Positions 3,188-38,399 are shown, counted from the first letter of the stretch. The stretch: 64,000 nt of DNA from Eledone cirrhosa (GCA_964016885.1 OZ024757.1:13516001-13580000), one strand, 5' to 3'. The notes: generated from the letters alone by a model not told the origin. A program made the numbers and translations.

Positions 3188-3390
3188 ATATAGAAATGGC
3201 TTCTACAGGACTAGAACTTTCATTTCAGGGAAATCGGGGCTTTCCTGATGATTTCCTTCGAATGAAACAGTTCTAGTCCTGTAGAAGCTATTTCTATATT
3301 ATATTTTGTATATACTCTACTAATGTATTGAGTACTTTACCTACTGTGGTTTCCCCCTCGATTGAACCCGAGACTCTCTCTCTCTCACAT
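3188..3390 (+). mobile_element. HHR-bearing non-autonomous Penelope-like end element (family A) with inverted 5' arm
   Basis: 3188-3235 is inverted relative to 3250-3298. Related copies at 6425-6490, 10100-10225, 13620-13812, 25010-25082 and 32724-32750. Confidence 0.75.
3238..3289 (+). ncRNA. Type I hammerhead ribozyme (family A)
   Basis: ggctttc-CTGATGA-t ttc cttc gaa t-GAAAC ag ttctagtc ct GTA-gaagct. Stem III acag/ctgt; predicted cleavage after 3283. Confidence 0.7.
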
Positions 3391-3416
3391 ATATATATAT
3401 ATATATATATATATAT

Positions 3417-6393
3417 AAATTGAAACAAAATGAAAACGAAATTTCATTTCTCACTCTTAGTATGGCACTTACTTAAATGTAAGTATGCATGTATACGTAC
3501 ATACATATATGTATACAGACGTACAGTAGCATGCACATATATATACATATATACATACATATGCATACAGGTACACATACATATATGCACGTATCAGTTT
3601 AGCGGCGCTTATTATAACGTCGCTTTGTTCGTTTGTAAACAAACTGAACAGCCTGAATTTATGCCATACGGTGTTAAGGCAACCACGTCACCTTTTTGTT
3701 CAACACTGACACAGGAACGATGTACTAGTTTCAAGCTTGTTAGCTATCATCAGCACCGTTTACCCATCTGCCAGATAGTTGAGCGTTCGAAAGTATATAC
3801 TTTGTGCTGATGATAGCTAACAAGCTTGAAACTAGTACATCGTTCCTGTGTCAGTGTTGAACAAAAAGGTGACGTGGTTGCCTTAACACCGTATGGCATA
3901 AATTCAGGCTGTTCAGTTTGTTTACAAACGAACAAAGCGACGTTATAATAAGCGCCGCTAAACTGATACGTGCATATATGTATGTGTACCTGTATGCATA
4001 TGTATGTATATATGTATATATATGTGCATGCTACTGTACGTCTGTATACATATATGTATGTACGTATACATGCATACTTACATTTAAGTAAGTGCCATAC
4101 TAAGAGTGAGAAATGAAATTTCGTTTTCATTTTGTTTCAATTTATCGTTTTCGGTATGCCTGACCGATTTAACTCACTCAATATGCAAATTAGGCTGCTC
4201 AGCCTTAATTTTCATAAGGGAAGTATATACTTTCGAACGTTCAACTATCTGGCAGATGGGTAAACGGTGCTGATGATAGCTAACAAGCTTGAAACTAGTA
4301 CATCGTTCCTGTGTCAGTGTTGAACAAAAAGGTGACGTGGTTGCCTTAACACCGTATGGCATAAATTCAGGCTGTTCAGTTTGTTTACAAACGAACAAAG
4401 CGACGTTATAATAAGCACCGCTAAACTGACACGTGCATATATGTATGTGTACCTGTATGCATATGTATGTATATATGTATATATATGTGCATGCTACTGT
4501 ACGTCTGTATACATATATGTATGTACGTATACATGCATACTTACATTTAAGTAAGTGCCATACTAAGAGTGAGAAATGAAATTTCGTTTTCATTTTGTTT
4601 CAATTTATCGTTTTCGGTATGCCTGACCGATTTAACTCACTCAATATGCAAATTAGGCTGCTCAGCCTTAATTTTCATAAGGGAAGTATATACTTTCGAA
4701 CGTTCAACTATCTGGCAGATGGGTAAACGGTGCTGATGATAGCTAACAAGCTTGAAACTAGTACATCGTTCCTGTGTCAGTGTTGAACAAAAAGGTGACG
4801 TGGTTGCCTTAACACCGTATGGCATAAATTCAGGCTGTTCAGTTTGTTTACAAACGAACAAAGCGACGTTATAATAAGCGCCGCTAAACTGATACGTGCA
4901 TATATGTATGTGTACCTGTATGCATATGTATGTATATATGTATATATATGTGCATGCTACTGTACGTCTGTATACATATATGTATGTACGTATACATGCA
5001 TACTTACATTTAAGTAAGTGCCATACTAAGAGTGAGAAATGAAATTTCGTTTTCATTTTGTTTCAATTTATCGTTTTCGGTATGCCTGACCGATTTAACT
5101 CACTCAATATGCAAATTAGGCTGCTCAGCCTTAATTTTCATAAGGGAAGTATATACTTTCGAACGTTCAACTATCTGGCAGATGGGTAAACGGTGCTGAT
5201 GATAGCTAACAAGCTTGAAACTAGTACATCGTTCCTGTGTCAGTGTTGAACAAAAAGGTGACGTGGTTGCCTTAACACCGTATGGCATAAATTCAGGCTG
5301 TTCAGTTTGTTTACAAACGAACAAAGCGACGTTATAATAAGCGCCGCTAAACTGACACGTGCATATATGTATGTGTACCTGTATGCATATGTATGTATAT
5401 ATGTATATATATGTGCATGCTACTGTACGTCTGTATACATATATGTATGTACGTATACATGCATACTTACATTTAAGTAAGTGCCATACTAAGAGTGAGA
5501 AATGAAATTTCGTTTTCATTTTGTTTCAATTTATCGTTTTCGGTATGCCTGACCGATTTAACTCACTCAATATGCAAATTAGGCTGCTCAGCCTTAATTT
5601 TCATAAGGGAAGTATATACTTTCGAACGTTCAACTATCTGGCAGATGGGTAAACGGTGCTGATGATAGCTAACAAGCTTGAAACTAGTACATCGTTCCTG
5701 TGTCAGTGTTGAACAAAAAGGTGACGTGGTTGCCTTAACACCGTATGGCATAAATTCAGGCTGTTCAGTTTGTTTACAAACGAACAAAGCGACGTTATAA
5801 TAAGCGCCGCTAAACTGATACGTGCATATATGTATGTGTACCTGTATGCATATGTATGTATATATGTATATATATGTGCATGCTACTGTACGTCTGTATA
5901 CATATATGTATGTACGTATACATGCATACTTACATTTAAGTAAGTGCCATACTAAGAGTGAGAAATGAAATTTCGTTTTCATTTTGTTTCAATTTATCGT
6001 TTTCGGTATGCCTGACCGATTTAACTCACTCAATATGCAAATTAGGCTGCTCAGCCTTAATTTTCATAAGGGAAGTATATACTTTCGAACGTTCAACTAT
6101 CTGGCAGATGGGTAAACGGTGCTGATGATAGCTAACAAGCTTGAAACTAGTACATCGTTCCTGTGTCAGTGTTGAACAAAAAGGTGACGTGGTTGCCTTA
6201 ACACCGTATGGCATAAATTCAGGCTGTTCAGTTTGTTTACAAACGAACAAAGCGACGTTATAATAAGCGCCGCTAAACTGATACGTGCATATATGTATGT
6301 GTACCTGTATGCATATGTATGTATATATGTATATATATGTGCATGCTACTGTACGTCTGTATACATATATGTATGTACGTATACATGCATACT
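3417..6393 (+). mobile_element. Retrozyme-like 463-bp tandem array (~5.6 sense units plus an inverted ~385-bp 5' arm), one hammerhead per unit
   Basis: Exact 463-bp period (CTGATGA cores at 3807, 4270, 4733, 5196, 5659, 6122). Units are nearly identical. 3417-3802 is antisense, and (TA)n flanks both ends. Confidence 0.9.
4263..4307 (+). ncRNA. Minimal type I hammerhead ribozyme (also 4726-4770, 5189-5233, 5652-5696, 6115-6159; partial 3804-3844; antisense 3716-3760)
   Basis: Stem I AACGGTG/CATCGTT, core CTGATGA, stem II AGC-taacaa-GCT, GAAA, palindromic stem III ACTAGT, GUA cleavage triplet (after 4300). Confidence 0.85.
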
Positions 6394-6549
6394 TATATAT
6401 ATATATATATATATATATATATAATGTGTGTGAGAGAGAGAGTCTCGGGTTCAATCGAGGGGGAAACCACAGTAGGTAAAGTACTCAATACAAAATTGAC
6501 ATTAAATGGTGATTTTTTTTTTTTTTTTTTTTTTATATATATATATATA

Positions 6550-6720
6550 TATCACCATTTAATGTCAATTTTTCTACGCTAGCATGGGTTAGACGATTTG
6601 TCCTATTGTGGGCAATGCCAGGTCAGGTGACCATGTCTTGCTCATACAGTACTGATCTTGGCTTCGCTTTAACAGCTGGAAGCCTTTCCAAACGCTAACC
6701 TCATTTACAGTAAGTACTGT
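6550..6720 (-). mobile_element. SINE 3' fragment (RTE-type tail family)
   Basis: GCTAGCATGGGTTAGAC...CAGCTGG...CCTCATTTACAG is shared with copies at 34.2, 61.4 and 62.5 kb. Confidence 0.7.
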
Positions 6721-7049
6721 TTATTTTGTATGTCGTGACCCCTACACCTTGGTCAAAATCAGTGACCCCTACACCTTGGTCCGAGCAGTGATCTCTAGTT
6801 TTCTTTCAAACTATATTTTTTCTTAAATTTAATTAAAAGAAATTTTATTAGATTTAGTTTCGGATAATTCTGTTTACATAAATAGCAAATCTTTTGATAA
6901 TTTATGTAAAATATTGTATATACTTGTATATATGTCGAGAAATGTGACAAAATATTGATGGTAAAATAGGGGGGAGGACTTGTCTTCGAGGTCAATATTT
7001 TGATTTCACCAACTTAAAAATTATATGTAAATGAGGTGCTAAAATATTT

Positions 7050-36949: not shown

Positions 36950-37990
36950 ATAGGAAAAAGTCTGACCCTACGGCAGAGCTCAAGCCCTTTCTGAGGCTAT
37001 TATATAAAAACACACAAAACCATTATATAAAAAAATACACATACACGCACAAATATACACATGCCCATACACACACATTAAAGTTATATATACACACATA
37101 CATACATACACATATATACATACATATGTATATATATATAAAATATATATATATATATACACACATATATACACACATACATACATACATATAAATATAT
37201 ACACACACGCGCAGATATATATAATATATACGATTAAATATACATATACAATTACATACAGATAGATATAAACATACATACACACACATATATACATACA
37301 CATATCCATATACACACACATATACATATACATATATATATATATATATAGATATATATACATACATATACGCAACACAAAAAAAAATTAATATCTAAAA
37401 ATAAAAAATGTTTGGTATGTGAAGGGTAAGGCAAAAAAATAGGGGGGAAAAAGAGGGGGGAAATAAATGACATAGGAAAAGGTTTAAATATAAGGGGAGA
37501 TAAGGGAGAAAGAGAATACAAGAGTACAGAACGTGGATTCAGCAGGTAAAAAAACCGTAGTGGAAGTAAAGAGCAGAGAAGGAGATCAAGGTGGTTGAGT
37601 TATCGTAGGAATGTCAATCCAGTTACAGATCAGATGTGATTTCAGATGAGGACAACATCTGAAGATCTCGGTCTTTGAGTTCAGGCAAGCAGAAGTGGCT
37701 TTCAAGTTTAACAAAATCCTATATTTTTCTGTGGTACACAAAGAACAATTCTTTGTGCCTCTTTGGTACTCCCTCGAATGGTCTAAAATAGACCAATCGA
37801 TAGAGTACGGGATGTTTTTATCCTTGAATTCCCACACCTTACGTAACTGATCTTAACTACATTTCTATTAAATATCTTATAATATCTATGATTAGGAGGA
37901 AAATGTTTATCTAAGAGTTCAAGGAATTTCCTTCCTACATTAGTTTTGACAGTTAGAGAGAAGGGGGTGTAAACCAAATAATTTTCCTTA
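36950..37990 (-). mobile_element. Internally deleted Naiad-type Penelope-like fragment (linker plus GIY-YIG C-terminus, microsatellite 3' region, HHR 3' half)
   Basis: [35 protein letters not shown] and WEFKDK..IDWSIL..CSLCTTEK..LNSKTEIFRCCPH. GAAAgggcttgagctctgccGTAgggtc near 36962-36991. Confidence 0.85.
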
Positions 37991-38021
37991 TATATATATA
38001 TATATATATATATATATATAT

Positions 38022-38174
38022 ATATAGGAACGAGTAGGACCCCGACGGCTGAGCTCAAGCCGTTTCGATGGCTAATTCTGGACTAAAAAAAATTTTTTTA
38101 AATTTTTTTAGTCCAGAATTAGCCGTTGAAATGGCTTGAGCTCAGCAGTCGGGGTCCTACTCGTTCCTATATAT
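38022..38174. repeat. Hairpin made of two inverted 3' halves of the 19161-type hammerhead
   Basis: TAGTCCAGAATTAGCCGT.GAAA.GGCTTGAGCTCAGC.GTCGGGGTC is present on both strands. Confidence 0.8.
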
Positions 38175-38201
38175 AATGGTTTGAAATTATTAGAAATGTA
38201 A

Positions 38202-38399
38202 GCTATCACCGTATTTTGACTAAAGAAATTAAAGAAATTATTTAGCCTGATAGTGGGGTTAAGAACCCTCGGAGAAATGGAAAAAGATGAGTATTGACGT
38301 ACGTCAATACTCATCTTTTTCCATTTCTCCGAGGGTTCTTAACCCCACTATCAGGCTAAATAATTTCTTTAATTTCTTTAGTCAAAATACGGCGATAGC
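38202..38399. repeat. 198-bp near-perfect loopless palindrome
   Basis: Centre GACGT|ACGTC at 38300/38301; one mismatch near the ends. Confidence 0.92.

Follow-up and report, generated by a model that had tools for sequence, protein, structure and literature searches.

The view that the hammerhead ribozyme motifs in a 64,000-nt window of Eledone cirrhosa DNA (GCA_964016885.1 OZ024757.1:13516001-13580000, the whole stretch analyzed here, with positions counted from its first letter) are real, and that they lie at the 3′ ends of Penelope-like elements (PLEs), mostly of the Hydra clade, largely holds. Our preferred reading of this microsatellite-rich animal DNA, which we consider probable, is that the hammerheads mark the 3′ ends of PLEs inserted into (TA)n and of their passengers, that three ribozyme families (A, C and D) carry a Hydra hairpin, that a fourth (E) likely belongs to a Hydra open reading frame (ORF) in the window, and that the hairpin, present as twin copies, likely positions the reverse transcriptase (RT). 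Such a hammerhead zoo in (TA)n is ordinary for PLE-rich invertebrates and the overall picture is already published; what appears new is the twin hairpin, with two classes of insertion ends just upstream of each of its copies, and there are hints of horizontal spread.

Positions 1 to 40,000 of the window were scanned on both strands with a type I hammerhead descriptor (C3G8 or U3A8 core, stem II of up to 130 nt, self-complementary stem III permitted), composed after the sites named in an earlier, sequence-only reading were known. Thirteen strict cores were found, in six families (A, B, C, D, E and H) that combine CUGANGA or UUGANAA with GAAA, UH and three helices. One core mismatch had to be allowed for family F (25207, minus strand) and for a copy of A (13761, minus strand) in a relaxed pass whose nine other matches were judged noise; G (core 26542) and a motif at 238-284 did not pass the strict descriptor. 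The sequence-only reading had counted about seven unrelated families. Six strict ones stand, and “unrelated” was too strong, as A, C and D share the Hydra hairpin. Its sites at 3238, 15043, 19161 and 23050 and its array at 4263 are strict, that at 25162 (minus strand) is the one that needs the core mismatch, and those at 238-284 and 26539 are the two that fail. The partial copies it placed at 10.1, 13.7, 36.96 and 38.0 kb are present, and the palindromic or near-palindromic stem III it described was borne out in A, B, D, E, F, G and H, where stem III is self-complementary and able to self-pair in dimers; that of C has 6 bp, with a GAGCTC loop region.

Family A (3188-3388, plus strand) consists of a short inverted arm, a hammerhead (core 3245, U.U at 10.1-11.1, cleavage after 3283) and a tail that holds the Hydra leader hairpin at 3314-3333 (plus strand) in an ACTC..GAGT variant (covariance model E 1e-6). 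A decayed copy lies at 10092-10212 (minus strand; hairpin at 10126), and the mismatched copy, at 13593-13821 (minus strand), is a paralog inside a local duplication; because the copies at 10.1 and 13.7 kb and a tail at 25.0 kb are all inside this segmental duplication, they are not independent insertions. Family D (14670-15249) is an inverted pair with U3A8 cores at 14757 (minus strand) and 15052 (plus strand) at a (TA)n site; one arm has a 104-nt tail with the hairpin at 15150-15171 (plus strand), found by strict pattern match. Family C (18833-19346, plus strand) has a U3A8 hammerhead (core 19166) with a 54-nt stem II region, a hairpin at 19275-19298 and alternative 3′ ends at ∼19269 and ∼19346. 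Downstream of C stands Hy1 (19360-21825, plus strand), a PLE that its translated motifs place in the Hydra clade, with an ORF at 19529-21825 disrupted by three frameshifts and one in-frame stop, and with degenerate hairpins in its leader at 19368-19408 and 19483-19500, found with a relaxed pattern whose five matches elsewhere were taken as chance. The first strict hammerhead after Hy1 is that of family E (22700-23207, plus strand; core 23055, ACACGTGT, 92-nt stem II region), beyond a microsatellite block, and E is likely the 3′ end of Hy1 and its own ribozyme. A second Hydra relic, Hy2 (36655-37988, minus strand; coding 37988-37600, hairpin 36691-36710), carries the 3′ half of a C-type hammerhead at ∼36950-37000, and two further C 3′ halves form an inverted pair at 38027-38167, each ending at (TA)n. 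Family H (35462-35552, minus strand; core 35542) is strict, folds well and was not among the sites of the sequence-only reading.

In all seven dispersed families (A and C to H), one end has a (TA)4+ tract that starts no more than 110 nt downstream of cleavage, compared with 26% of background positions (the threshold was chosen post hoc), and both ends of the family B array adjoin (TA)14-15. Insertion into such tracts is illustrated by the local duplication, a side feature of the window in which ∼9-19 kb and 23-32 kb are diverged copies of each other (9,000-18,800 versus 23,200-32,300; ∼13 kb, ∼75-95% identity, with a partial third copy) and which supplies empty-site controls and can be used for dating insertions. 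A 4,387-bp insert at 18821-23207 (C, the Hy1 ORF and E) occupies a (TA)n tract whose paralogous counterpart near 12,400 is empty, and a 602-bp insert (D) occupies one whose counterpart at 28135-28178 is empty; for F and G the filled/empty comparison gave no clean alignment. The empty tracts may instead stem from deletion between flanking tracts. The placing of nearly all hammerheads in (TA)n by the sequence-only reading was upheld.

The same architecture recurs in Hydra relatives. Among 94 related loci (the best 80 of 473 metagenome matches plus 14 contigs), 76 extended far enough past the ORF to be evaluated, and 57 of these have a sense hammerhead downstream of the ORF end (an antisense match occurs in 3), the listed cores lying at +90 to +467 nt. 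A sequence-only motif search with stem II limited to 32 nt gave 47 unique hammerhead motifs. Of 10 stem positions tested in them, 9 pair better than in any of 2,000 partner shuffles, the U.U/G-C pair being the exception; the loci are akin to one another, which inflates this and the other shuffle tests on them and is a first point against our reading. Stem covariation, which the earlier reading had named as a check among family members, is strong across the relatives and was not seen within the window families compared.

Downstream of the ribozymes and upstream of the start codon, these elements share a bulged hairpin of the form GCTC-[variable stem-loop]-T(T/C/A)-GAGC-AC, which occurs 103 times in 58 of the 94 loci and never in coding sequence. 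Where an ORF start had room upstream (n = 45), 38 are preceded by a hairpin at no more than 200 nt and 24 by two, which mostly sit around −100 to −135 and −35 to −75, with a spacing of 58 to 83 nt. Among 75 unique sequences, 72 have a Watson-Crick match at inner pair 1; C-G and U-A replace each other at inner pairs, and the covariation score of a 35-row alignment was reached by none of 500 shuffles; in A and C, both ends of the first outer pair change together to give ACTC..GAGT. A covariance model of 35 foreign instances (of the 75 unique sequences, those with 8, 10 or 11 inner bases) returned six matches in the window up to E 5, the top five of which are the tails of A (two copies), C, Hy2 and D. 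By sequence, then, the hairpin ties families A, C and D to Hydra. It was shown in none of B, E, F, G and H, and E to H could simply end without a tail. The ends of the relatives fall close to the hairpins: 19 of 25 tail-less ends are 31 to 60 nt past the cleavage site, hairpin 1 itself starting 33 to 61 nt past it, and, counted from that hairpin's start, 9 of 10 tailed ends are at 53 to 66 nt, immediately ahead of hairpin 2. The 5′ ends of full-length copies appear to fall at hairpin sites as well. (TA)n was also seen directly upstream of the leader hairpin at L020:394-500, L023:965-1000 and L088:2019-2110.

We propose that the RT-endonuclease would nick (TA)n and dock on the hairpin, and that copying would start in the A/U-rich stretch just 5′ of hairpin 1 (giving no tail) or of hairpin 2 (giving a tail of ∼60 nt), then run back through the hammerhead and across an intact cleavage site. 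As copies span that site, the process would need a tandem transcript left uncleaved, or a religated circle, as template. Stalling and fold-back inside the ribozyme would be frequent and would yield the inverted pairs of half-ribozymes, and with a palindromic stem III only dimers, such as occur in tandem transcripts, would be cleaved. A precedent comes from the Poseidon element PAc, for which two internal RT start sites bounding the tail are described in vitro in the consulted part of Frangieh et al. (2024, PMC11167929).

Only C (z −2.75) and H (z −2.71) have a hammerhead as their minimum free energy (MFE) fold as monomers, the MFE structure of the other 8 of 10 segments being something else, and no compensatory stem change was found among three A copies and four C copies, which show decay only. 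Several further observations weigh against our reading. The outer four hairpin pairs are invariant among 35 relatives and are therefore silent on pairing, the fourth inner pair does not exceed shuffles, and G.U versus A.C counts over inner pairs 2 to 4 (19 versus 8) favor RNA only modestly. The D hairpin reaches just E 1.2 by covariance model, 6 of the 25 tail-less ends have (TA)n outside 31 to 60 nt, and the link between E and Hy1 has position as its sole support. In the Poseidon assay, as far as the consulted part of the paper goes (PMC11167929), insertion proceeded without need of hammerhead cleavage and the start sites were within the stem-loop, not upstream of it.

A bolder extension is possible at best. 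In it, the twin hairpin would be a clade-wide RNA signal that sets both Hydra RT starts and licenses any hammerhead RNA carrying it, and family B would be a viroid-like circle, a recent horizontal mover among distant animal hosts via any PLE helper.

B forms an array at 3804-6395 (plus strand; 5.6 units of 463 bp, 99% alike, ending at (TA)15) and an inverted partial copy at 3415-3802 (minus strand; ending at (AT)14), with strict cores at 3807, 4270, 4733, 5196, 5659 and 6122 (plus strand) and 3753 (minus strand). Its ORF-less tandem units, each with one type I hammerhead with an ACTAGT stem III, have low GC (36.5%) and are self-paired (circular fold z −8.0 versus 40 shuffles); the array is a non-LTR (non-long-terminal-repeat) retrozyme. 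Its two ends are 66 nt apart in the unit, and since B has no Hydra hairpin, its helper is probably from another PLE clade. Thirteen nucleotides after the unit ends at 6395 and 3415, TGCC stands in a small stem-loop (two cases, by eye), possibly a non-Hydra counterpart of the twin hairpin.

With regard to spread, 0.39 to 0.96 of 28 sampled words from the nonrepetitive part of B occur in 20 public runs from 15 studies, under 14 coded organism labels plus one wastewater metagenome (0.39 of the words; not used as evidence of habitat), and the B hammerhead pattern had no match in the metagenome, viral and prokaryote-genome collections. Among the runs listed for B there was no RNA run, which says nothing about expression. 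Four runs were aligned to 18840-21995. In run X24 of organism E (1.9 Gb of raw reads), four partial reads fell on this stretch, and in X19 one; other runs of organism E contain 0.61 of the words of B, so B seems to occur without this Hydra family. Run X2 (organism B) contains most of the Hy1 ORF at ∼98%, in long contigs at depth 6 to 7, with C at only 43 to 58; it shares most of the common alleles of run X1 (organism A) and differs from the window by indels near the frame breaks. Because the C:ORF depth ratio is ∼8:1 in X2 and several hundred to one in X1, contamination with organism A DNA is unlikely, and the X2 ratio favors transfer between lineages rather than contamination or close kinship. 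Near-identical B under 14 labels and a Hydra ORF in a second organism suggest horizontal transfer.

On a competing explanation that we regard as possible but unlikely, all families would be 5′-truncated dead copies of many autonomous PLE families, and no passenger would sustain itself. Truncation near the 3′ end is typical, depth rises toward the 3′ end of the ORF, and the Hy2 relic does carry a C-type end. However, in X1 the summed depth (no copy number, and readable as an order of magnitude only) is 2.2 to 3.2 million across the 3′ half of C with its tail, 89,000 immediately upstream of that, 150,000 at 19197 and 2,000 to 9,000 over the 5′ ORF bins; single contigs have depths of 5 to 14. The C 3′ depth is ∼400 to 700 times that of the Hy1 5′ ORF bins, which speaks against dead copies, as does B with its ORF-less 463-bp tandem unit. 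The 330 nt upstream in C are noncoding and unlike the untranslated region (UTR) of either Hy1 or Hy2, a finding that also counts against our own reading. The X1 depths suggest about 10^5 C ends with a few percent reaching the 5′ core, a proportion that divergence below 80% could exaggerate. At both predicted ends X1 contigs run on into (AT)n, 98 of them after 19269 and 381 after 19359, and strand-switch joints, many to the opposite strand, cluster at 19198-19225 inside stem II. The earlier suggestion of very large ribozyme numbers fits the abundance of C in X1, the best-matching run, with the qualification that most C copies appear to be half-ribozymes.

Less probable still, the hairpin would be a DNA-level signal, either an internal promoter or an endonuclease site, with ends nearby as a result of the endonuclease resolving the intermediate at that point. 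Neither the outer GCTC/GAGC nor the ACT after it varies, as for a sequence read by protein; in the consulted parts of their paper, Craig et al. (PMC8557442) explain the tail by endonuclease-mediated resolution, and the Penelope endonuclease of Drosophila is cited in the seen part of PMC11167929 as needing the tail for recognition. By contrast, the variable spacer (7 to 24 nt) with its compensatory C-G/U-A swaps suits a single strand, and the motif is strand asymmetric, with 131 sense and 9 antisense occurrences.

The helper is very improbably a single Naiad-type autonomous element that mobilizes all ribozyme families. Naiads prefer (TA)n and occur in Octopus, and the sequence-only reading had placed two Naiad-type RT/GIY-YIG relics among the hammerheads, a label that is refuted for Hy1 and Hy2. 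Hy1 has the order RT, then endonuclease-type motifs C-terminally, and its translation shows RVRWKT, KADKTS, CNCTYPDNC, CKLC and CRH, i.e., the RWK, DKT (rather than DKA), CxCX5C, CxxC and CxH features of the Hydra clade (Craig et al. 2021, PMC8557442, section 11). In four segments over 19529-21825, the 16 homologs found (all at E 1e-44 or better) align collinearly along Hy1, and they also revealed Hy2 at 37988-37600 (minus strand), which likewise matches Hydra proteins. Naiads, as far as the consulted part of Craig et al. goes, have an N-terminal endonuclease and no canonical hammerheads. Judged by these motifs and homologs, Hy1 and Hy2 are Hydra-clade PLEs. Pfam and PDB searches of Hy1 gave no significant domain match, and the GIY-YIG call rests on motif position and homologs. 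The picture of an autonomous PLE with non-autonomous passengers in (TA)n gains from the two filled/empty pairs; its helper is Hydra, and it is not one system, because two Hydra families are present (Hy1 and Hy2 proteins are 27 to 33% alike) and B, F, G and H are without the Hydra hairpin. Two candidates around Hy1 were dropped: a CTGATGA at 21951 as its decayed ribozyme (it folds poorly, and no listed indel in runs X1 and X2 restores stem III) and a selenoprotein reading of the in-frame TGA (a single stop in a frameshifted copy).

That the motifs are chance folds of AT-rich, palindrome-rich DNA, as the failure of G and of the 238-284 motif and the eight nonhammerhead MFE structures might hint, is refuted for A to E and H by 13 observed cores at a score of at least 10 versus means of 0.40 to 0.69 and a maximum of 3 in 400 shuffles scored with the identical descriptor (four schemes of 100), by six families remaining above that maximum after copies are collapsed, and by the architecture shared with 57 of 76 relatives. 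A similar motif density in shuffled sequence, which the earlier reading had named as a counter-indication, was not seen. Rfam gave no match at gathering score in 1-39,800 and, by E-value, the 150 listed of 274 matches were microsatellite or palindrome noise with no hammerhead among those listed; it also returned nothing for hairpins or hammerheads in eight Hydra loci.

The remaining features are weaker or of other kinds. Family F (25128-26400, minus strand) is a decayed hammerhead (core 25207) at the end of a degenerate element of putative coding origin. Thumb-like and cysteine-like remnants were noted there by eye only; for this relic at 25.1-26.4 kb, Pfam (three frames), a word search (another frame) and tblastx against the loci gave nothing, and a search of representatives in one frame gave two low-complexity matches only. 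Family G (26508-26659, plus strand) is a weak, minimal hammerhead-like motif with an extra base after A9 and ACGT (fold z 0.10). Family I is a degenerate hammerhead-like end at 238-308 (minus strand) with an inverted partner at ∼610-680 (plus strand), which fails the descriptor (fold z +1.69). At two insertion sites, host flanks recur as inverted duplicates beyond (TA)n: around families A and B (3324-3388 versus 6424-6492, and 6492-6572), where sequence comparison shows at 6424-6572 an inverted duplicate of the left target flank of ∼65 bp and then a palindrome from the right flank, and likewise around family I (80-237 versus 690-826). It looks as though a broken (TA)n end, after folding back, had served as primer for synthesis into the flank.

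Palindromes in which no hammerhead was detected lie at 38196-38405 (97% perfect, ending at (AT)12), 32962-33072, 28335-28453 and 23867-24324. A tRNA-like head of a short interspersed element stands beside (AT)12 at 38427-38560 (Rfam tRNA 28.1 bits, below the gathering score). A 31-bp satellite fills 39825-57470 (17.6 kb, ∼549 copies) and a related 27-bp satellite 57810-60027, both with short TA runs inside. Directly adjoining family A, a C-terminal relic at 2720-3187 (minus strand) has no Pfam match, and we take it to resemble an RTE-type long interspersed element; the dispersed repeats of the window presumably resemble Octopus repeats. No Hydra relative was found in the viral contigs searched. 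Hydra elements were also seen in contigs filed as bacterial metagenome-assembled genomes (L081-L094), which are probably animal host DNA; one of them, L084, lies in a 491-kb contig labeled Denitrobaculum and showed no hammerhead.

The comparisons with the literature that follow are drawn from the parts of the cited papers that were consulted. Like the Hydra clade (Craig et al. 2021, PMC8557442), which includes Hydra-1_Obim from Octopus with its (TA)n preference (supplement), Hy1 is a short element with RT and then a C-terminal GIY-YIG, and the window shares the 3′ hammerhead, often with U.U, the short self-paired stem III, (TA)n targets, inverted truncated copies and an optional tail; the U.U pair and short self-paired stem III of Hydra hammerheads resemble those of A and B. 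Compared by eye only, Hy1 is a different family from Hydra-1_Obim. The stem II regions of C and E, at 54 and 92 nt, exceed the 10 to 25 nt of the 47 related motifs (within the 32-nt limit of that pattern). (TA)n preference and inverted structures are points in common with the Naiad clade; its N-terminal endonuclease, DKA motif and lack of a canonical hammerhead do not fit Hy1. Many hammerhead families per genome, thousands of dispersed motifs, the U3-A8 core swap, palindromic helix III, dimer cleavage and opposite-strand pairs have been described (Cervera and de la Pena 2014, PMC4209133); G fits the minimal form of that paper, whereas A to F and H have a longer stem III, and A and B have U.U in place of G10.1-C11.1. 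We found no dedicated report on hammerheads in the octopus and cephalopod literature.

B is like the metazoan non-LTR retrozymes, for which a PLE helper has been proposed (Cervera and de la Pena 2020, PMC7229834; Li, Clavereau and Pollet 2026, 10.64898/2026.07.22.740005) and, in the latter, a PLE origin; its unit of 463 bp is slightly over the quoted 150 to 450 bp. Retrozyme sequences are described as species specific (PMC7229834), unlike B with its 14 coded labels and wastewater metagenome, and the B array also departs from described retrozymes in having an inverted arm of PLE type and two ends joined to (TA)n. Poseidon PAc (PMC11167929) resembles the Hydra elements in having two RT starts downstream of the hammerhead, a tail between them and an AT-rich target; its starts lie in an AC-rich stem-loop inside the ORF, whereas the proposed Hydra starts, mapped by genomic ends only, lie upstream of two conserved noncoding hairpins. 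The terms “hairpin” and “stem-loop” occur nowhere in the main and supplementary text of Craig et al. (figures and one supplementary page aside), although the twin hairpin can be made out in the Hydra-1_Ajap and Hydra-2_Amil consensus sequences given there. We found no paper on a Hydra or Penelope leader hairpin, and a related search gave Frangieh et al. only (most subscription journals and Repbase were outside its reach); among the papers found, one Poseidon element alone has been assayed with full-length protein (PMC11167929).

For PLE biology, the choice of start site and the optional tail remain open questions, and the twin hairpin makes them testable. The hairpin also provides a 20-base tag for assigning ORF-less ribozyme families to a helper. 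Our results suggest that half-ribozymes make up most of the “ribozyme counts” in such genomes and that variants with a long stem II escape standard descriptors and Rfam. If true, the presence of near-identical retrozymes in many hosts would contradict the species specificity that has been described for them.

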